Positions 1,363-33,788 of a stretch of 38,114 nucleotides of DNA are shown here, piece by piece. Position 1 is the stretch's first letter, and the number at the start of each line of letters is the position of its first letter. The notes under the pieces are model-generated. The model saw only the letters and a program-made list of their open reading frames with translations, ran no database searches and was not told the DNA's origin. The DNA comes from an uncultured Bacilli bacterium (GTDB lineage Bacteria; Bacillota_I; Bacilli_A; RF39; UBA660): NCBI GenBank assembly GCA_947628545.1, contig CANRAJ010000001.1, positions 1-38,114 of the forward strand. Reading direction: 5' to 3'. Made by a program: the position numbers and the translations under genes.

Positions 1363-3855
1363 CTAAATTTTAAAACTTTGTTCAAAATCCGCAAAAGTTA
1401 ATTGTTCTTCTTTGCCAATGGGTTCTTTTGCTTCAGTTTTTTCCTTCGATTTCGCAAAGGTTACTAATTCACATTTTTTGGCAAAATCATCATATTTTGT
1501 TTTGCCCAAAGAGCTACCGGTACTTGCAAGATCCATAATCGGAATATCACTATTTTTAATTTCCGTTAGATCTGTATCGGCTTTAGCCAAGTTTAAATCT
1601 TTACTATCGGTTAAGTAAGCCCTAAATATTTTATAATCTTTGGTTTTAGCTTTTTTAAATAACATATTACCCTTCTTGGCTCGACTTAAACTAGTTAATT
1701 CGGTTAATTTAAGTCGTTTTGCTGTTTGTAAATTTGTAAAGATATTTAAATATTCGTGACTATTTTTAAGGGTGCTTGCAAAAATAACCTCATCATCTTT
1801 TAAGTTGATGGCTTTAACCCCACTGGCTTTAGGACCAACAACTGGAACCTCACTATTTTGATATTTTAAATAATAACCATTCTTGGTAACTAATAAGACC
1901 TCTTTTTTCGCCATCGTAGCATTAATAACCTCATCGCCTGCTTTTAATTTAAAAGCCATCATTGGTTTGGAATACCGACTGACCTCTAAAGAAGCCAAGG
2001 CAACTTGTTTAATCATTCCGCCTTTAGTAAATAACACAATATTTTCTTGTTTTTCTTTTAAGATTAAACTAGCCACAATCCGTTCTTCTTCTTTAATTAA
2101 AATCGTATTACTAATATGTTTACCTAATTCTTTCCATTTACTTTCCGGAATTTTATGCACCGGCACAAATAAATAATTACCTAAATTAGTAAACAAAAGT
2201 AAATTATCAAGCGTACTAACTTCGTATAGACTCGTAATATAATCTCCGGGTTTTAAAGTTGTTTCTTCATTTTCATTGGCTTTATAGCTTTTTAGACTAA
2301 CTCGTTTAACATAGCCCTCATGAGTTACCACAACAATCACTTGTTCATCACTAATCATTTCTTTTAAATCAACTTTAATTTCTGTTATTTCATCTTTGAT
2401 TTCGGTTAATCTTGGCGTTGCATATTTTTTCTTAATTTCTCGAAGTTCTTCTTTCATGACTAGTTTTAATTTGTTTTCATCACTTAGGATGGCTTGACAA
2501 TTAGCAATTTTTTCTTTTAAACTGGCCGCTTCTTCTTCCAAAATAGCAATATCCGTATTGGATAACCGGTAAAGTTGTAATGTGACAATGGCTTCGGCTT
2601 GTTCGATGGTAAACCCAAATTTCGCCACTAAATTCTCTTTCGACTCTTGTTTGTTTTTACTCGCCCGAATCGTTTTAATTATCTCATCTAAAATAGAAAT
2701 AGCTTTAATTAAACCTTCGACAATATGAAAACGCAATTGATAACTTTTTAATTCAAATTCCGTTCTTTTGGTTATAACTTCCCGATCGTGGGCAATATAA
2801 GCATCTAATATTTCTAAAATACCTAAAGTTTTGGGTGTCCGATTAACTATCGCCACCATGTTATAATTATACGAAATTTGTAAATCCGTATTTTTAAATA
2901 AATAATTTAAAATTAAATCTTTATTAGCCCCACTTTTAAGATCAATGGCAATTCTCAAACCTTCCCGGTCCGTTTCATCACGCACTTCACTAATGCCCTC
3001 AATTTTTTTATCAATTCGAATAGCATCAATTTTTTGCACTAATTGTTGTTTATTAACCTCAAAAGGAATTTCATCAATAATAATTTGTTCTTTGCCTTTT
3101 TCTTTATTGAAATGGTATTTGCATCTAACTATAACCCGGCCCCGACCTGAGGTAAAAGCATCAATTATCCCTTGCTTGCCTTCGACAATACCCCCGGTGG
3201 GAAAATCGGGTCCTTTAACAATTTCTAAAATGGTATCTAATCGACAATTGGGTGAATCAATTCTTTTAATCGTCGCTTCAATAATTTCGCCTAAATTGTG
3301 AGGCGGAATATTGGTCGCATAACCAGCACTAATCCCATTGGTTCCATTAACTAAAAGATTAGGAAATTTTGCTGGCAACACGGTTGGTTCTAAAAACCGG
3401 TCATCAAAGTTCGGTGCCCAACTGACCGTTTCTTTATCTAAATCTTTTAGTAGTTCTTCACTAATCGCGGCTAAACGGGCTTCCGTATAACGGTAAGCGG
3501 CCGCGCCATCACCATCCATCGAACCATTATTGCCATGAACATCAATTAAAATAGTATTTTGTTTCCACCATTGACTCATCCGAATCATGGCATCGTAAAC
3601 CGAAGAGTCCCCATGAGGATGGAACTTACCTAAAACCCCACCGACGGTGTAAGCACATTTAATATAGGGCTTATCATAAGTATTATGTTCATCATACATG
3701 TAATATAGAATTCTTCTTTGCACTGGTTTTAAGCCGTCGCGCACATCGGGAATGGCCCGGTCCAAAATTATTTCTTTAGCGTATTTGCTAAAACGATCGC
3801 CCATAATATATTCTAAAGCATAATCTTCAATTCTTTTTAAAACATTACTTTCCAT
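1363..3855 (-). CDS. parC: DNA topoisomerase IV subunit A
   Basis: 830 aa with DGLKPVQRRILY, GKFHPHGDSSVYDAMIRMSQWW and the catalytic-Tyr region AAAYRYTEARL. The RMSQ (rather than RMAQ) signature and the position after a ParE-like gene favour ParC over GyrA. Confidence 0.85.
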   Translation of the reverse strand: MESNVLKRIEDYALEYIMGDRFSKYAKEIILDRAIPDVRDGLKPVQRRILYYMYDEHNTYDKPYIKCAYTVGGVLGKFHPHGDSSVYDAMIRMSQWWKQNTILIDVHGNNGSMDGDGAAAYRYTEARLAAISEELLKDLDKETVSWAPNFDDRFLEPTVLPAKFPNLLVNGTNGISAGYATNIPPHNLGEIIEATIKRIDSPNCRLDTILEIVKGPDFPTGGIVEGKQGIIDAFTSGRGRVIVRCKYHFNKEKGKEQIIIDEIPFEVNKQQLVQKIDAIRIDKKIEGISEVRDETDREGLRIAIDLKSGANKDLILNYLFKNTDLQISYNYNMVAIVNRTPKTLGILEILDAYIAHDREVITKRTEFELKSYQLRFHIVEGLIKAISILDEIIKTIRASKNKQESKENLVAKFGFTIEQAEAIVTLQLYRLSNTDIAILEEEAASLKEKIANCQAILSDENKLKLVMKEELREIKKKYATPRLTEIKDEITEIKVDLKEMISDEQVIVVVTHEGYVKRVSLKSYKANENEETTLKPGDYITSLYEVSTLDNLLLFTNLGNYLFVPVHKIPESKWKELGKHISNTILIKEEERIVASLILKEKQENIVLFTKGGMIKQVALASLEVSRYSKPMMAFKLKAGDEVINATMAKKEVLLVTKNGYYLKYQNSEVPVVGPKASGVKAINLKDDEVIFASTLKNSHEYLNIFTNLQTAKRLKLTELTSLSRAKKGNMLFKKAKTKDYKIFRAYLTDSKDLNLAKADTDLTEIKNSDIPIMDLASTGSSLGKTKYDDFAKKCELVTFAKSKEKTEAKEPIGKEEQLTFADFEQSFKI

Positions 3856-3867
3856 TATTTTCCCCCC

Positions 3868-5772
3868 TTAAGCGCGATAATCGTCTTCCATGGTAAATTC
3901 GACATTTTCGTTAATCCAATCTTTCCGTGGTTCCACTTTATCACCCATTAATACACTAACTCTTTTTTCTGCTAGAGAAGCATCATTAATATTGACGCGA
4001 ATTAAACTCCGCGTATCAGGATTCATGGTTGTTTCCCAAAGTTGTTCCGGATTCATTTCTCCTAAACCTTTGTATCTTTGAATGCTTACCTTACCTGGAT
4101 TTTCTCTTTTTAATTCGTTTAATTCTTCATCCGTATAGGCATAAAATCTTTTTTTGCCCGCTTCTAATTTATATAAAGGTGGCATCGCTATATAAAGTTT
4201 ACCGGCTTCAATTAAGCCCCGCATATAACGATAGAAAAAGGTTAAAAGCAAAACTTGAATATGGGCTCCATCGACATCGGCATCGGTCATAATAATAACT
4301 TTATCATAATTGGAATCCGCGGCATCAAAACTTTGCCCAACTCCCGCGCCTACGGTATGAATTATGGTATTGATTTCTTCATTTTTCATTAAATCATCCA
4401 TACTGGCTTTTTCGCCATTGATAACTTTACCTCTTAAAGGTAAAATAGCTTGGAATTTCCGGTCGCGGCCCCCTTTAGCCGAACCACCAGCCGAATTACC
4501 TTCGACTAAGAATAATTCGTTAATCTTCGGATTCTTACTTTGCGCCGGCGCTAATTTTCCACTTAAATTCTTTTCAATTTTACTTTTATTTTTGCCATTA
4601 CGGGCATCTTCCCGGGCTTTTCTCGCCGCTTCCCGGGCCACTTTACTTTTCATGGCTTTATCAAGGATGGTAAGCGCCACTTCTTTATTTTCTTCTAAGA
4701 AAAACTTTAAGGATTCATAGGTAATACTTTCCGTTACACTTCTAGCTTCAGGCGTTCCTAATTTACCCTTCGTTTGACCTTCAAATTGCAATAATTCTTC
4801 GGGAATTTTTAAACTAATAACAGCCGATAATCCTTCGCGGACATCCGCTCCATCAAGTGTTCCATCTTTACTTTTAAATAAATTATTATTTTTGGCATAA
4901 TCATTAAAGGCCTTCGTAATCCCCGTTTTAAAACCAACTTCATGAGTTCCCCCATCACTAGTTTTAACATTATTAACGAAAGATAAAATTGATTCATTAT
5001 AAGAATTCGTATATTGCATGGCAATATCAACCTCAATCTTACTTTTAACATTACTAAAATTAATTACTTTATGTAATGTTTCTTTATCTTCATTCATATA
5101 TTCCACAAAGCTAATTAAGCCATTATCATAATGATATTTAACCTCTTTTTTATCGGCTTCATCGATAACCTCAACCGTTAAATTCTTTTGTAAAAAAGCA
5201 TTTTCTTGCATTCTTTCACTGATTGTCGTAAAAGAAAAATTACAATTTTTAAAGATTTCCGGATCGGGTAAAAATTTAACAATGGTTCCCGTTTTATTAC
5301 TTTTACCGACGGTTTTTAAAGGACTTTTTACTTTGCCCCCATCACAAAATTCAATGGATGAAATAAGGCCATCGCGATAGATAACTACTTGCATTTCTTT
5401 ACTTAAAGCATTAACAACGGAAGCCCCCACGCCATGCAAACCACCAGATACTTTGTAACCGGCTTCACTAAATTTGCCCCCAGCATGCAAAATCGTATAA
5501 ATAACTTCCGGTGTCGATTTGCCGGATTCGTGCATGCCAATCGGTACACCTCGTCCATTATCGGCAACCGTTACCGAACCATCTTTATTAATTATTACTT
5601 TAATATGGTTACCATAACCATTAATAACCTCATCAATAGCATTATCGACAATTTCCCAAACCAAATGATGCATCCCACGTTTATCCGTCGAACCAATATA
5701 CATCCCTGGTCTTTTTCGAACTGCCTCTAAGCCTTCTAAGATTTTTATCGATGTCTCATCATATTTTGCCAT
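3868..5772 (-). CDS. parE: DNA topoisomerase IV subunit B
   Basis: 634 aa. GHKL ATPase motifs (LHHLVWEIVDNAIDE, GGLHGVGASVVNALS) and Toprim motifs (LVEGNSAGGSAK, IMTDADVDGAHI). GKSTPEVIYT resembles the ParE rather than the GyrB signature. No dnaA/dnaN/recF context. Confidence 0.85.
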   Translation of the reverse strand: MAKYDETSIKILEGLEAVRKRPGMYIGSTDKRGMHHLVWEIVDNAIDEVINGYGNHIKVIINKDGSVTVADNGRGVPIGMHESGKSTPEVIYTILHAGGKFSEAGYKVSGGLHGVGASVVNALSKEMQVVIYRDGLISSIEFCDGGKVKSPLKTVGKSNKTGTIVKFLPDPEIFKNCNFSFTTISERMQENAFLQKNLTVEVIDEADKKEVKYHYDNGLISFVEYMNEDKETLHKVINFSNVKSKIEVDIAMQYTNSYNESILSFVNNVKTSDGGTHEVGFKTGITKAFNDYAKNNNLFKSKDGTLDGADVREGLSAVISLKIPEELLQFEGQTKGKLGTPEARSVTESITYESLKFFLEENKEVALTILDKAMKSKVAREAARKAREDARNGKNKSKIEKNLSGKLAPAQSKNPKINELFLVEGNSAGGSAKGGRDRKFQAILPLRGKVINGEKASMDDLMKNEEINTIIHTVGAGVGQSFDAADSNYDKVIIMTDADVDGAHIQVLLLTFFYRYMRGLIEAGKLYIAMPPLYKLEAGKKRFYAYTDEELNELKRENPGKVSIQRYKGLGEMNPEQLWETTMNPDTRSLIRVNINDASLAEKRVSVLMGDKVEPRKDWINENVEFTMEDDYRA

Positions 5773-17961: not shown

Positions 17962-18843
17962 TTATTCGGCAGTTTTGGCTAGTTCATTCATTAAATTCGG
18001 ATTAAAGATCTCAGTTTTAAGCATGATAATTTCTTCTTTATAAGGGGCTCTATCACCTATCCAAGGAGTTTCTAAAATTTTGGGAATATTTTCTAACCGG
18101 GGATTAGTGCATACCTTAACTAAATTAGTAAAGCCAAGTGTTCCATACCCAATATTAGCATGCCGATCTTTCCGCGAACCTCGGTCATTTTTACTATCAT
18201 TTAAATGCACACATTTTACTTTCTCTAAACCAATTAAACGATCTAGTTCATCTAAGTAAGTATCAAAATCAGCAATATCAATGCCCGCATCATTTAAATG
18301 ACAAGTATCTAAACAAATTCCCACTTTATCGGGATAAACAACATGATCTAAAATATATTTAAGTTCCGTCATATCGCGGCCACATTCCGTTCCTTTACCC
18401 GCCATGGTTTCAAGTAATATCATTACCTCATCTTCCGGTTTAATAATTTTATTTAAGGCCTCTGCAATATTACTTAAAGCCACTGGTACTTCTTGTTTTA
18501 AATAATTTCCCGGATGAACTACTATATATCTGACCCCTAAAGTCGCCACTCTTTTAATTTCATTTTGTAAAAAGGCAATCGAAAAATGCCAACCATCTAA
18601 ATTTGTTTTATTGGCTAAATTAATAATATAAGGTGCATGACAAATAACATTTTTTAAATCAATATGTCCTTTTTGCATCAGTTCATGCGCTTCTTTAGTT
18701 AAGGCCTCATCCAAACTTTTCCGAATCGTATTTTGAGGTGCTCCCGTATAAAACATAAAAGTATTAGCCCCATAACTTAGGGCTTGTTCCGTTGAGCCCA
18801 ATAATTGCTTTTCACCAAAATTTACATGTGAACCAATAATCAT
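17962..18843 (-). CDS. nfo: Endonuclease IV (AP endonuclease)
   Basis: 293 aa with HxGxY..., CVHLNDSKNDRGSRKDRHANIG and other Nfo metal-ligand motifs. Confidence 0.85.
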   Translation of the reverse strand: MIIGSHVNFGEKQLLGSTEQALSYGANTFMFYTGAPQNTIRKSLDEALTKEAHELMQKGHIDLKNVICHAPYIINLANKTNLDGWHFSIAFLQNEIKRVATLGVRYIVVHPGNYLKQEVPVALSNIAEALNKIIKPEDEVMILLETMAGKGTECGRDMTELKYILDHVVYPDKVGICLDTCHLNDAGIDIADFDTYLDELDRLIGLEKVKCVHLNDSKNDRGSRKDRHANIGYGTLGFTNLVKVCTNPRLENIPKILETPWIGDRAPYKEEIIMLKTEIFNPNLMNELAKTAE

Positions 18844-19886
18844 TATTTTTCCCTTCTTTCTCTTTTTAATATGACATTTTCTTCACTGTAAGTCTCATCT
18901 AGAGCTTTCCCCACATTATGATAATCATAAACCGGGGCTAAAAAATAATCTAAGTATAGTTTAATCGCTACATTATTATCTTCTTCCATCCATTTATCCA
19001 AAATATACATGAGGGCAGATTTACTAATTACACCCCGATTAATTTGATAAGCTACACGTCTTTCTTCTCCGGTAATTATTTGCTTAATAATTACTTTTAC
19101 TTGCTCATCTTCTTGATATTTCAAAACGGATTTTTTCATACTATTGTCGCTGGCTAAAGCCCGGTTTTGGTATTCGACAAAAAGTAAAAAGATATCCGGC
19201 CGATCATTTAAAACTCTTTGATAATTTTTCATCATAAAATCATTAATTTCGTTAAAAGAAACATTATGATGCACTTTAAAATATAATTTCAAGGTATCTA
19301 AAATAATAAAGTTGGTATCATTGCCCGGATATTCCACTATTTTTTGAGCCATTTGGTAATTTACCTCATCACAAGGCGTATTAATAATCATGGCTGAAAA
19401 TAATAAATAATAGCCAAAGTCAAATTCAGCATCGGCTAAAACCTCACTAATTTTCCGTTTTACTAGATTAATATTTAAGCCATTTACTTTAAAAATAGCT
19501 TGATACCCACAGTAAGGAAGAGAGGCCAATAGTTGTTTTTCATAATCTTCTACCGCAATATAACCATCATTAACTAAACTAATCAAATAACGCCAATGAC
19601 ATTTTTGTAAAGCCAAATTAATTATTTTATCTTGGGGCTCAACTTCATATATAACTAAATTATAAAGTAGTTTTTCTAATCCCTCACCACTATTATTTTT
19701 AAAACGATTTAACGAGTTTATATTAATTTTTAAACCTTGAAAAAAGGTAAACGGAAAATCCGGTTCTAAGGGCTTAGTCACAATATCACTAATAACACGA
19801 TCAACCAAGGAATTTAAAAGCTTTTTATTCTTTTTCCGAATTAAATATTCTTTAATCTTTAATATATCCAATTTTTGTACTTCCAT
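18843..19886 (-). CDS. Hypothetical helical protein translationally coupled to nfo
   Basis: About 347 aa. An AAGGTGGG RBS precedes the ATG at 19886; the track uses the GTG at 19895. The TAA stop shares one base with the nfo ATG (TAATG). No recognisable motif. Confidence 0.55.
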   Translation of the reverse strand: MEVQKLDILKIKEYLIRKKNKKLLNSLVDRVISDIVTKPLEPDFPFTFFQGLKININSLNRFKNNSGEGLEKLLYNLVIYEVEPQDKIINLALQKCHWRYLISLVNDGYIAVEDYEKQLLASLPYCGYQAIFKVNGLNINLVKRKISEVLADAEFDFGYYLLFSAMIINTPCDEVNYQMAQKIVEYPGNDTNFIILDTLKLYFKVHHNVSFNEINDFMMKNYQRVLNDRPDIFLLFVEYQNRALASDNSMKKSVLKYQEDEQVKVIIKQIITGEERRVAYQINRGVISKSALMYILDKWMEEDNNVAIKLYLDYFLAPVYDYHNVGKALDETYSEENVILKRERREK

Positions 19887-19906
19887 TTTACCCACCTTAT
19901 ACTAAA

Positions 19907-19935
19907 ATTATAAATGATGTTTTTTTAAATAGCAA
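19907..19935 (-). promoter_or_regulatory. Candidate promoter of the hypothetical-gene/nfo operon
   Basis: Minus strand: TTGCTA (19930-19935), 17 nt, TATAAT (19907-19912), about 20 nt upstream of the RBS. Confidence 0.4.
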
Positions 19936-19965
19936 ATAAAACCCTATTTTTCAAGTTTATTTTTG

Positions 19966-19994
19966 TTGACAAAAGGATACCAATATTATAAGAT
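19966..19994 (+). promoter_or_regulatory. Candidate promoter of the tandem-repeat small RNA
   Basis: TTGACA (19966-19971), 17 nt, TAAGAT (19989-19994). Alternative reading: 15 nt, TATAAG. It is back-to-back with the divergent promoter at 19907-19935. Confidence 0.45.
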
Positions 19995-19999
19995 AAAAA

Positions 20000-20162
20000 T
20001 GTATTTAGCAATAAATACCTAAAAAAGCAGGTATTCCCAACCGTCAAAAGGGGACGAAAAAAGAGGATGCCCAGCCGTTGAATGGGAACGAAAAAAGAGG
20101 ATACCCAGCCGTTAAATGGGAACGAAAACAGGAAACTAGAGAGCACACTCCAGTTTTATTTT
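20000..20162 (+). ncRNA. Candidate novel small RNA with three tandem 34-nt pseudoknot-forming units
   Basis: Own promoter. Two mutually exclusive 5' hairpins (20001-20018 and 20014-20035). Three 34-nt units, then a terminator hairpin at 20133-20156 (9 bp, one mismatch) followed by a UAUUUU run. No credible ORF and no downstream + strand gene. Confidence 0.45.
20028..20129 (+). repeat. Three head-to-tail 34-nt direct repeats
   Basis: Units lie at 20028-20061, 20062-20095 and 20096-20129. Units 2 and 3 are 31/34 identical; units 1 and 2 are about 23/34 identical. Core sequence: CCCA-GC-CGTT-GAA-TGGG-AACG-AAAAA-AGAGGAT. Confidence 0.9.
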
Positions 20163-20196
20163 GACTTAATATACATTTTTTAAAATATAATTATAT

Positions 20197-20240
20197 AAAA
20201 AAGATAGCATACTAATTGGTTAAATTATGCTATCTTTTTT
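20197..20240. terminator. Strong bidirectional terminator at the recO 3' end
   Basis: 15-bp stem AAAAAAGATAGCATA / TATGCTATCTTTTTT with a 14-nt loop. It overlaps the recO stop codon at 20239-20241. Confidence 0.7.
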
Positions 20241-20970
20241 ATAAGGTTAAGAGATTTTTTAAAAATTCTTTACTTTTTAAATACAAACCTGTATAGCGAT
20301 CATAGTAATTATCGATAAAAAAGTTTATTTCTTTAATTATCTCGGAATCAATATTTAATGCCGAAATACTTTCAATTTTAACTAAATAATACATGCGAAT
20401 CATTTTAATTATTTTCGCATCGACAATTCGTTCATCTGTTAAACAATTGGCACAAATAAAGCCCCCTTTGTCGGCATTAATGGTAGCAATATTATTTTTA
20501 CTACCACACTCCACACATTCATCTAAATTTAGCCCTACTCCTAAAAAAGGCAAATATTTTAATTCTAAAATATTGGTAATAACTAAAGGATCAAGTCCCG
20601 CTTCAATTTTTAAAACTCCATTAATAAAATTATCATAAATACTTGGTTCATGACTTTGTTTTAATACTTGTTGCGTTAAATCAACTAAATAAGATAAATA
20701 ACTAATTAAGACAATATCTTGATTGATATTTTTTAAAGGATTTATAACATCAGCACTAACAAAAAGCGAAAGTTTATCTTCTTTATAATAAATATTAAAC
20801 TTAGCATAAGTAAAGCGTAAGGTTAATGCTCTACTTTTACTTTTAATATTTTTGGCTCCCTTACACATAATCCCAATTAAACCATATTCTTTCGTAAAAA
20901 CATTAATAATTTTACTGGTATCACCATAAGGAGTTTCTTTGAAAATAAAACCTTCGACTTCTTTAATCAT
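20239..20970 (-). CDS. recO: DNA repair protein RecO
   Basis: 243 aa. N-terminal OB fold and a C4 zinc motif, CVECGS...CANC. Positioned after era-yqzL, as in B. subtilis. Confidence 0.85.
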   Translation of the reverse strand: MIKEVEGFIFKETPYGDTSKIINVFTKEYGLIGIMCKGAKNIKSKSRALTLRFTYAKFNIYYKEDKLSLFVSADVINPLKNINQDIVLISYLSYLVDLTQQVLKQSHEPSIYDNFINGVLKIEAGLDPLVITNILELKYLPFLGVGLNLDECVECGSKNNIATINADKGGFICANCLTDERIVDAKIIKMIRMYYLVKIESISALNIDSEIIKEINFFIDNYYDRYTGLYLKSKEFLKNLLTL

Positions 20971-29708: not shown

Positions 29709-29785
29709 GTCCTCGTAGCTCAGCAGGATAGAGCAATCGCCTTCTAAGCGATCGGTCAGGCGTTCGAATCGCCTCGAGGATACCA
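29709..29785 (+). tRNA. tRNA-Arg (anticodon UCU), CCA encoded
   Basis: Manual cloverleaf: acceptor GTCCTCG/CGAGGAT, D arm GCTC..GAGC, anticodon arm ATCGC-CTTCTAA-GCGAT, T arm AGGCG-TTCGAAT-CGCCT, discriminator A, then CCA. Confidence 0.85.
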
Positions 29786-33547: not shown

Positions 33548-33788
33548 TCTCTTTCCTTCTTTCCAAATAAAAAAGGTCGTGCCAAAGGACGAGTTTCCCC
33601 GTGGTACCACCTTTATTTTTTTACTCATTTTCTCCTAACGCGAGATGACGAAATAACTTACTTCATTTTTCAGTTATTCAACTAGCAAGGGATATATATT
33701 TAATTTTCTTTATAGTCTTTCACCTCAAGGACTAATTCGCTAGCAAGAATTGATTAAATATACCTGTCTTGGTCTTCATTTTTAACAT
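33548..33788 (-). promoter_or_regulatory. T-box riboswitch leader of ileS
   Basis: Minus strand: T-box sequence AAAGGTGGTACCACGGGG (33597-33614). The terminator helix pairs GGUGGUACCACGGGG with CCUUUGGCACGACC, followed by U6. The stem I distal loop contains GGTGAAA. A candidate specifier AUU-A lies in ...GAAAAUUAAAU... Confidence 0.75.

Follow-up and report, generated by a model that had tools for sequence, protein, structure and literature searches.

We analysed the repeat array at positions 19966-20162 (+) of the window, a 38,114-nt stretch of DNA (G+C 32%) from an uncultured Bacilli bacterium, and we assign it, with a probability of roughly 0.9, to the toxI part of a chromosomal ToxIN (ToxN/AbiQ family) type III toxin-antitoxin and abortive-infection locus. 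The toxin gene toxN of this locus has been deleted, and what is left is an orphan antitoxin array that is likely a harmless relic. The array lies between recO (20239-20970, Pfam RecO_N/RecO_C) and a gene for a 347-aa protein (18843-19886), both on the - strand. The 343-nt gap (19896-20238) that separates the recO stop from the 347-aa gene start contained no credible open reading frame (ORF). An earlier reading made from the letters of the DNA (the sequence-only reading) had described the gap as a + strand unit consisting of a promoter-like site, 5' hairpins, repeats and a terminator, and our analysis confirmed this layout.

The promoter-like site (19966-19994, +) consists of a -35 box TTGACA (19966-19971), a 17-nt spacer and a -10 box TAAGAT (19989-19994), with 10 of 12 consensus matches. 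It is followed by a 6-bp leader hairpin GTATTT/AAATAC (20001-20018, +) just before the first repeat unit and by an alternative hairpin AATACCT/AGGTATT (20014-20035, +), which was the one chosen in the minimum-free-energy fold; both had been placed accurately in the sequence-only reading. The three tandem units of about 34 nt that it had counted were also found by Tandem Repeats Finder (TRF), which gave a period of 34 nt, 3.1 copies and 86% matches at 20021-20128. A run of six A residues stands at every unit boundary, and with the phase set from this A-run the units are 36 nt (unit 1, AAAAAAGCAGGTATTCCCAACCGTCAAAAGGGGACG, 20021-20056), 34 nt (unit 2, AAAAAAGAGGATGCCCAGCCGTTGAATGGGAACG, 20057-20090) and 34 nt (unit 3, AAAAAAGAGGATACCCAGCCGTTAAATGGGAACG, 20091-20124) long, all on the + strand. 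A partial unit, AAAACAGG (20125-20162, +), leads into a putative Rho-independent terminator and its T-run. The hairpin of this terminator (AAACTAGAG/CTCCAGTTT, 20133-20156, +) and the T-run are present as had been described, but the stem reported to have 9 bp forms only 8 of 9 pairs, with one A.C mismatch. The array is non-coding, since none of the unit lengths (34, 35 and 36 nt) is divisible by three and a sister strain carries an extra 35-nt unit. Outside the array, neither strand of the 38-kb window contained a match to the unit core (0.01 expected by chance), so this core is not a dispersed repeat within the window, a possibility that had been raised together with the sequence-only reading.

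Same-species contigs with an intact toxN

Relatives of the locus were located via the RecO protein of the window, and three contigs with an identical RecO were obtained (L001-L003): a metagenome-assembled genome (MAG) of an uncultured Bacilli bacterium from NCBI, one contig from the European Nucleotide Archive (ENA) and one Logan contig. In all three, recO and the 347-aa gene are separated by a gene for a 171-aa ToxN, which lies on the strand that corresponds to the + strand of the window. In these contigs the array with its promoter, 5' hairpin and terminator is found again in the same order, followed by AAGGAGGG with a GGAGGG ribosome-binding site, ATG and toxN, and the toxN of the sister strain terminates inside a long hairpin beside the recO stop. 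The flanks of the window are 97.1-97.6% identical to those of the toxN-positive contigs, and the 347-aa protein of the window clusters with that of the toxN-positive MAG.

The 171-aa protein covered the full Pfam model ToxN_toxin (PF13958) at 1.5e-40 and was identified as AbiQ by PADLOC (1.8e-34). Its best match in the PDB was 4ATO, the ToxN of Bacillus thuringiensis (3e-24), followed by 2XD0, the ToxN of Pectobacterium atrosepticum (4e-13), and 4GLK, AbiQ (1e-10); the ToxN of E. coli is also among its solved relatives. A PLSSPK motif in the protein aligned with T52, S53 and K55 of P. atrosepticum ToxN, which are active-site residues of that enzyme (PMC5086642).

Comparison of the window with the sister strain showed that the toxN ribosome-binding site and approximately 480 bp of coding sequence are deleted. 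At the junction they are replaced by a 28-nt filler (GACTTAATATACATTTTTTAAAATATAA, 20163-20190), and after the filler the last 10 codons of toxN, LYKKDSILIG, are kept together with the stop codon (20191-20223, +). This remnant was recognised both by tblastn (ToxN residues 162-171, 9/10 identical) and by nucleotide alignment, and no other ToxN-like sequence was found in the 38-kb window. Between the convergent toxN remnant and recO lies a long AT-rich hairpin (AAAAAAGATAGCATA/TATGCTATCTTTTTT, 20197-20240), which is kept in L001-L003 and is a probable bidirectional terminator. No clear source was found for the filler. Its reverse complement weakly resembles, at 23/29 positions, a stretch inside the toxN of L001, which could mean either a complex rearrangement or chance in AT-rich DNA.

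Units 1 and 2 of the window are the same as units 1 and 2 of L001. The third unit of L001, 35 nt long, has no counterpart in the window, which therefore has three units instead of four, its unit 3 being identical to the fourth of L001. The terminator stem of L001, CTCTAGTTT, forms 9/9 pairs with a predicted energy of -11.6 kcal/mol compared with -7.0 kcal/mol for the window, where a T-to-C change is a private substitution. Both promoter hexamers are kept in L001 and the spacer has two substitutions; equivalent TTGAnn/TATAnT promoters occur at the same position in related toxIN and orphan loci. The AT-rich stretch contains four promoter-like sites against 3.7 expected from shuffles, and it is conservation among relatives, not statistics, that supports the putative promoter. 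A hairpin between promoter and first unit is likewise found in related arrays, for example GCATAA/TTATGC in L087.

The array of the window is thus toxI minus toxN, because the same-species contigs carry the same array upstream of toxN in the canonical toxIN layout, and with toxN cut to its last 10 codons, one unit lost and the terminator weakened, it has become an orphan antitoxin gene. Type III systems of the toxIN/AbiQ type have been described since 2009 (PMC3401426, PMC5086642). A published type III locus comprises a promoter, tandem repeats, a terminator and a toxin; the promoter upstream of the repeats is preferred and not strict, and toxIN repeats measure 31-62 nt with 1.9-5.6 copies (PMC3401426). 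The repeats of the window lie within these ranges, and the hairpin at 20133-20156 with its T-run supplies the short palindrome after the repeats as a predicted terminator. A toxin gene immediately downstream is found in L001-L003 and is absent from the window, which, with only 10 toxN codons left, holds a degenerate and not a complete toxIN locus. Judged by its sequence, the array is known in kind, namely a sequence-divergent ToxI that lies outside Rfam coverage and has been orphaned, and it is not a new class of small RNA (sRNA). The novel sRNA family proposed in the sequence-only reading is set aside on this ground, since the same array is toxI upstream of toxN in three same-species contigs.

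A missing toxN might also be produced by a mis-joined metagenome contig, that is, by an artefact of assembly or binning. The window is an entire NCBI contig with a protein that clusters with one from a MAG, assemblers break at repeats (contigs L092-L095 end, at their 5' ends, inside arrays), and the other three copies of the locus in this species all have toxN. However, the missing segment is unique sequence and not a repeat, and the toxN 3' end standing in register with the recO terminator, the 28-nt filler and the private terminator substitution all point to a real deletion allele. Toxin-less or truncated alleles are also seen again and again at related loci in many independent assemblies, and we regard an artefact as very improbable. 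The count of three units against four may be a different matter: it possibly reflects repeat collapse, and unit numbers taken from assemblies need caution. Exact-protein look-ups with the 347/350-aa protein, Nfo, Era and P0121 revealed no additional record of the allele carried by the window, and a pattern of two units of the window subfamily had 0 matches in a metagenome scan and 0 matches in viral scans.

The ToxI family and the fold of its unit

A profile built from ToxN relatives led to 80 genome loci, all in gut-type Bacilli or Clostridia MAGs, with ToxN identities of 49-57% when the species itself is excepted. A tandem repeat was found upstream of toxN in 76 of these 80 loci, nearly always of 34-37 nt in about 3.2 copies and 55-150 nt upstream, and the consensus of the ToxN-linked arrays, AAAAAAGCGGTGAATCCAGCCATTAAATTGGAACTT, could be aligned to the unit of the window. 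In the closest relatives, whose ToxN is 64-66% identical, the units take the form AAAAAAGAGGGATACCCAACCGTTAAATGGGAACT and the terminator is homologous to that of the window (GGAAACTAGAGAGCAAAACTCTAGTTTTT in L087 and L089). Where arrays were detected by the core motif beside ToxN relatives, 70/70 were co-oriented with toxN and had toxN downstream.

This constant orientation bears on the idea that the repeats act on the - strand or as DNA, either as a leader or attenuator of the 347-aa gene (with anti-Shine-Dalgarno motifs UCCUCUU and UUCCC) or as iterons. The - strand of the array does lie upstream of the 347-aa gene, and the scanner found the terminator hairpin only on that strand, where the A.C position becomes a G-T (in RNA, G-U) pair. 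Its fold was also slightly more stable than that of the + strand (z of -1.3 versus -0.45), although neither strand folded better than shuffles, by a method to which pseudoknots are invisible. However, the A.C mismatch is private to the window, the stem of L001 being perfect, toxIN occurs in unrelated contexts such as polA-fpg, and the 347-aa gene has a promoter-like site of its own at 19935-19907. With 70/70 arrays upstream of toxN and on its strand, we give action on the - strand or as DNA hardly any credence. A leader or attenuator on the - strand and an anti-Shine-Dalgarno sRNA were both rejected because the mismatch is private and the related arrays are co-oriented with toxN.

Structure was analysed with 114 distinct units from ToxN-linked arrays. 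The 3' half of the units was misplaced by MAFFT because of the variable loop length, and the units were re-registered with the 5' columns and the first GG downstream of the loop as anchors. Stem B (the helix S1 of the sequence-only reading, NCCA/UGGN, columns 9-12 with 20-23) was paired at 93.6% over the 114 units. Its pair 9-23 occurred as UA 64, CG 34, GC 6, AU 5 and UG 4 times, with 1 unpaired, so that all four Watson-Crick types were represented. Stem A is formed by GG(U) upstream of stem B and (G/A)CC at the 5' end of the stem B loop, with its core 97-98% paired. Compensatory variants of stem A were seen as AGC:GCU and GAC:GUC (L081), GGGU:GCCC (L018, L073) and GAGU:GCUC (L075). The family knot has 2-3 nt between the 5' strands, a junction of 0 nt and an A-rich loop of 5-7 nt, and the A-run is almost invariant across the family. 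At the family level, covariation thus supports a predicted ToxI unit that is an H-type pseudoknot of two interleaved helices with single-stranded tails, as reported for the ToxI of Pectobacterium and Bacillus (PMC5086642, PMC4627078). In the units of the window stem B is intact and stem A is reduced to GG:CC, with an additional U-A pair in unit 1, where GGU:ACC and CCC/GGG are possible.

The sequence-only reading had also drawn a pseudoknot, with S1 and a second helix S2 (CGUU/AACG). The positions it gave were exact (CCCA 20070-73 with TGGG 20083-86, CGTT 20076-79 with AACG 20087-90, and in unit 1 CGTC 20042-45 with GACG 20053-56), and S1 is real by covariation, but S2 is not supported, the conserved second helix being GG(U):(G/A)CC. 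S2 was paired in only 42% of cells family-wide, competes with the conserved GG:CC helix for the CC dinucleotide and is disrupted in the close relative L095 (CAUU/ACUU). It would also leave 0 nt across S1, which by pseudoknot geometry would be sterically implausible for an H-type knot. GUU/AAC pairing is possible in the immediate subfamily of the window.

The same reading had taken the linker after each unit, AAGAGGAU, as Shine-Dalgarno-like. The linker is indeed A-rich, but it stands after units 1 and 2 only. At this position the relatives read AAAAAAGCGGUG, in most of them with GCGG in place of GAGG; this stretch combines the A-run with the 5' strand of a pseudoknot helix and is not a Shine-Dalgarno or 30S decoy. 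We therefore read AAGAGGAU as a probable A-rich ToxN cleavage site followed by the 5' strand of stem A. The more general idea of a multivalent ligand for an RNA-binding protein is supported, the predicted protein being the ToxN endoribonuclease. As a whole, an sRNA whose S1 and S2 pseudoknots and AAGAGGAU linkers act as a sponge for an RNA-binding protein or the 30S subunit has in its favour that the stems can be drawn in three units (with CGUC/GACG in unit 1), that GUU/AAC pairs also occur in the closest relatives L087 and L089, and that Rfam has no match. But it is contradicted by synteny, since the same array in the sister strains is the toxI of a toxIN locus; S2 fails on pairing, on its break in L095, on its overlap with GG:CC and on the 0-nt loop; and the change of GAGG to GCGG in most relatives makes the Shine-Dalgarno likeness incidental. 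Its probability is close to zero.

In an intact locus, the mechanism established for the ToxIN of Pectobacterium, Bacillus and E. coli would presumably also hold for the family of the window. The repeat array would be transcribed from a single promoter, and most transcripts would stop at the hairpin after the array, so that ToxI would be made in excess and toxN would be expressed from read-through. ToxN would cut the precursor within each A-run; the site of the B. thuringiensis ToxN is AAA|AA (PMC8860590). Each 34-nt product would then fold into an H-type pseudoknot with stem B (CCCA/UGGG) and stem A (the upstream GG with the CC of the loop), and its single-stranded tails would bind ToxN in an inactive cyclic complex until ToxI is depleted on phage infection.

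Rfam gave no match of its ToxI family RF02519 to the region (19850-20280), either at the gathering threshold (50 bits for RF02519) or at E <= 10, and the Rfam hit that had been named as a refutation of the sequence-only reading was thus not obtained for the array region. Two weak matches, to a microRNA and a frameshift site, were dismissed as noise. RF02519 was also silent at E <= 1 on 7 related toxIN loci, while the units of the B. thuringiensis plasmid pAW63 scored 59, 47 and 40 bits. Rfam is silent on the window because RF02519 is built on, and specific to, Bacillus sequence. RF02519 has a 4-bp stem and a 9-nt loop, as in unit 2 of the window. By score the RNA of the window is outside RF02519, but its architecture and genomic role are the same.

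The ToxIN of pAW63 is the closest comparison in layout, with the same order of promoter, tandem repeats, terminator hairpin and toxN. B. thuringiensis ToxI is reported as 34 nt x 2.9 (PMC5086642), and the 34-nt repeat was confirmed in the pAW63 sequence. Its base pairs, taken from the Rfam structure line and covariation, give the same 4-bp stem and 9-nt loop as in the window (gCCU/AGGc versus CCCA/UGGG), again with an A-run at the unit boundary. In both, an upstream GG(U) is complementary to (A/G)CC of the loop, and the loop motif RCCGUWG is common. The two differ in that the ToxN of pAW63 is only about 35% identical to that of the sister strain, and in that the pAW63 locus is plasmid-borne, whereas the locus of the window is chromosomal in a gut Bacilli MAG, has lost its toxin gene and is negative for RF02519.

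Some members of the family show unusual arrays. At L017 2677-2870 and L026 75-261 the units are 59 nt long, the family unit being enlarged by about 24 nt within the stem B loop (CCCAGCC...AAAATTGGG), which indicates that this loop tolerates large expansion. L087 contains two complete toxIN loci in tandem between polA and fpg (3092-3203 and 3830-3943), and L088 is similar. Their ToxI unit types differ, one being of a GCGGTG type and the other of a window-like GAGGGA type, which points to paralogous pairs that coexist in one genome and probably do not cross-react.

Arrays without toxN

For a census independent of toxN, metagenome contigs were scanned for two adjacent family units, which gave at least 120 loci. 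Since this pattern demands two good units, the sample is biased toward well-preserved arrays. The counts that follow refer to the matches listed, among which 94 arrays had at least 750 nt of downstream sequence. An intact toxN followed in 59 of the 94, a frameshifted toxN in 2, a toxN fragment alone in 17, and no detectable toxN in 16, so 35/94 arrays (approximately one third) were without intact toxN. When loci were clustered at 90% identity (n = 48), 26 clusters had intact toxN only, 11 had no toxN only (some of them in several independent samples), 4 had a remnant only and 7 were polymorphic. L104 and L133 retained only the last approximately 29 residues of ToxN, as in the pattern of the window. 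At one polymorphic locus, seen in four assemblies with 99%-identical flanks, toxN in L174 is replaced in L164, L165 and L196 by an 810-bp segment that encodes a protein of a PD-(D/E)XK 'transposase' family, and the number of units at this locus ranged from 2 to 4. Loss of toxN with retention of toxI is therefore a recurrent outcome, and the window is one instance of it. The sole viral match of the family pattern was rejected as chance in GC-rich coding DNA with no ToxN.

No consistent alternative toxin was found downstream of the orphan arrays, the neighbours being heterogeneous (RsgA, PDDEXK_2, Fic, GNAT and unknowns). At L204 4237-5232 (+) a Fic/DOC-HTH protein and at L205 815-1306 (-) a GNAT acetyltransferase follow an orphan ToxI-like array in place of toxN. 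Fic/DOC and GNAT folds are used by type II toxins, and these two neighbours could represent coincidence or toxin swapping. In L183 (~660-1950, -) the array and toxN are about 1.2 kb apart with two small ORFs (128 and 130 aa) between them, the first having a prepilin-like N-terminus GFTLVELLAVL, a layout unusual for a type III locus.

The frequency of such arrays raises the question of whether the array of the window is kept by selection as a stand-alone antitoxin that acts in trans against a ToxN elsewhere in the genome or from plasmids or phages, for anti-addiction or immunity. Such a role would parallel that of the phage pseudo-ToxI, which overcomes ToxIN. The window does not differ from the toxN-positive strain in its promoter hexamers, its 5' hairpin or any of its three units. 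Toxin-less arrays are common: among the matches listed, toxN was absent downstream of 16 and defective downstream of 19 of the 94 arrays, and 11 clusters had none at all. The stems of these arrays are intact, two toxIN loci stand side by side in related genomes, and a phage pseudo-ToxI shows that free ToxI repeats can work in trans (PMC5086642). However, recognition between ToxI and ToxN is reported to be highly specific to cognate pairs (PMC4627078), and the window has acquired a destabilising mismatch in its terminator and lost one unit. The identity of the array region, 97.5%, is the same as that of the flanks, so no extra constraint is visible; the intact stems come from a sample biased by the search pattern; and any toxin-antitoxin locus would be expected to decay neutrally by losing its toxin first. 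Maintenance by selection as an antitoxin acting in trans is thus unlikely. A broader version, in which orphan ToxI arrays form a class of free-standing RNA 'immunity genes' under selection, with promoter, repeats and terminator maintained after toxN is lost or replaced, would explain why about one third of the family arrays lack intact toxN, and we rate it slightly lower still.

The preferred assignment, a toxI array orphaned by deletion of toxN, most likely implies an array that would still be transcribable but is without a cognate partner in cis, a relic of toxin loss and not an active regulator. The relic part follows from the weakened terminator (-11.6 to -7.0 kcal/mol), the lost unit and the absence of conservation beyond that of the flanks. 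Several observations weigh against the assignment. The units of the window are below Rfam ToxI detection even at E <= 10, and the predicted promoter is a consensus match that is not above chance. With stem A of only GG:CC (plus U-A in unit 1), the exact fold in the window is less certain than the family consensus, and the cleavage site and the binding of ToxN are taken from homologous systems and would apply here by analogy. A second toxN beyond the visible 38 kb may be served by the array, as related genomes hold two toxIN loci. The relic part in particular is weakened by the promoter hexamers and unit sequences being identical to those of the toxN-positive strain, and by the intact stems of orphan arrays at other loci, the latter in a sample biased by the search pattern.

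For annotation, this assignment means that a conspicuous candidate for an sRNA can be entered as the antitoxin component of a ToxIN/AbiQ module for phage defence. It also means that the Rfam ToxI model misses a whole ToxI family of gut Firmicutes, with arrays at 76/80 ToxN-linked loci and 0/7 tested loci scoring. A corrected pseudoknot model for gut-Firmicute ToxI and the finding that about one third of arrays (among the matches listed) have no intact toxN are useful by-products. Should orphan arrays be expressed and give protection, they would count as RNA-only elements of immunity to toxins; otherwise they would be useful markers of past turnover of defence systems in gut bacteria.

Known systems and neighbouring features

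Other characterised systems share parts of this picture. AbiQ/antiQ of Lactococcus lactis (35 nt x 2.8) and the ToxIN of P. atrosepticum and E. coli (36 nt x 5.5) have toxins of the same PF13958 family as the sister-strain ToxN and use the same principle of a processed-repeat antitoxin in abortive infection (PMC5086642, PMC8860590). Their repeats are unrelated to those of the window in primary sequence, copy number and cleavage motif differ (AA|AU, GAA|AU), and none of them has been described as an orphan array. CptIN and TenpIN follow the same logic of repeats, terminator and endoribonuclease toxin, but with other toxin families, repeats of 40-57 nt and, for CptIN, heterotetramers, whereas the protein linked to the array of the window is of the ToxN type.

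Truncated toxins with full sets of repeats were already noted by Blower et al. 2012 (PMC3401426), and the window, with 10 codons left, is the extreme of this series. Those loci were found toxin-first, whereas in the present census 16/94 arrays (among the matches listed) were found by RNA sequence and had no detectable toxN; fully orphaned arrays were invisible to the earlier surveys because these started from the toxin. The pseudo-ToxI of phage phiTE likewise consists of ToxI-like repeats without a linked toxN and can neutralise ToxN in trans (PMC5086642), but it is phage-borne and selected as anti-defence, while the array of the window is chromosomal and sits at the exact site of a deleted toxN.

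The 347-aa gene beside the array (18843-19886, -) is the first of an nfo-lspA-rluD cluster and had no Pfam or PADLOC match. Of 5.8 billion proteins, only two were related to its product at E <= 1e-20 (that product's own cluster and a protein of 45% identity), so the gene is effectively an orphan. L001 has an extra stretch of about 65 nt (~4600-4665, corresponding to window ~19887-19890) just upstream of the ATG of this gene; in the window a Shine-Dalgarno-like GGTGGG directly precedes the ATG, and the insertion in L001 separates the two. The window further contains two RNA features unrelated to the array, an ordinary tRNA gene at 29709-29782 (+) and a T-box leader at 33582-33785 (-) that scored 96 bits, above its gathering score.

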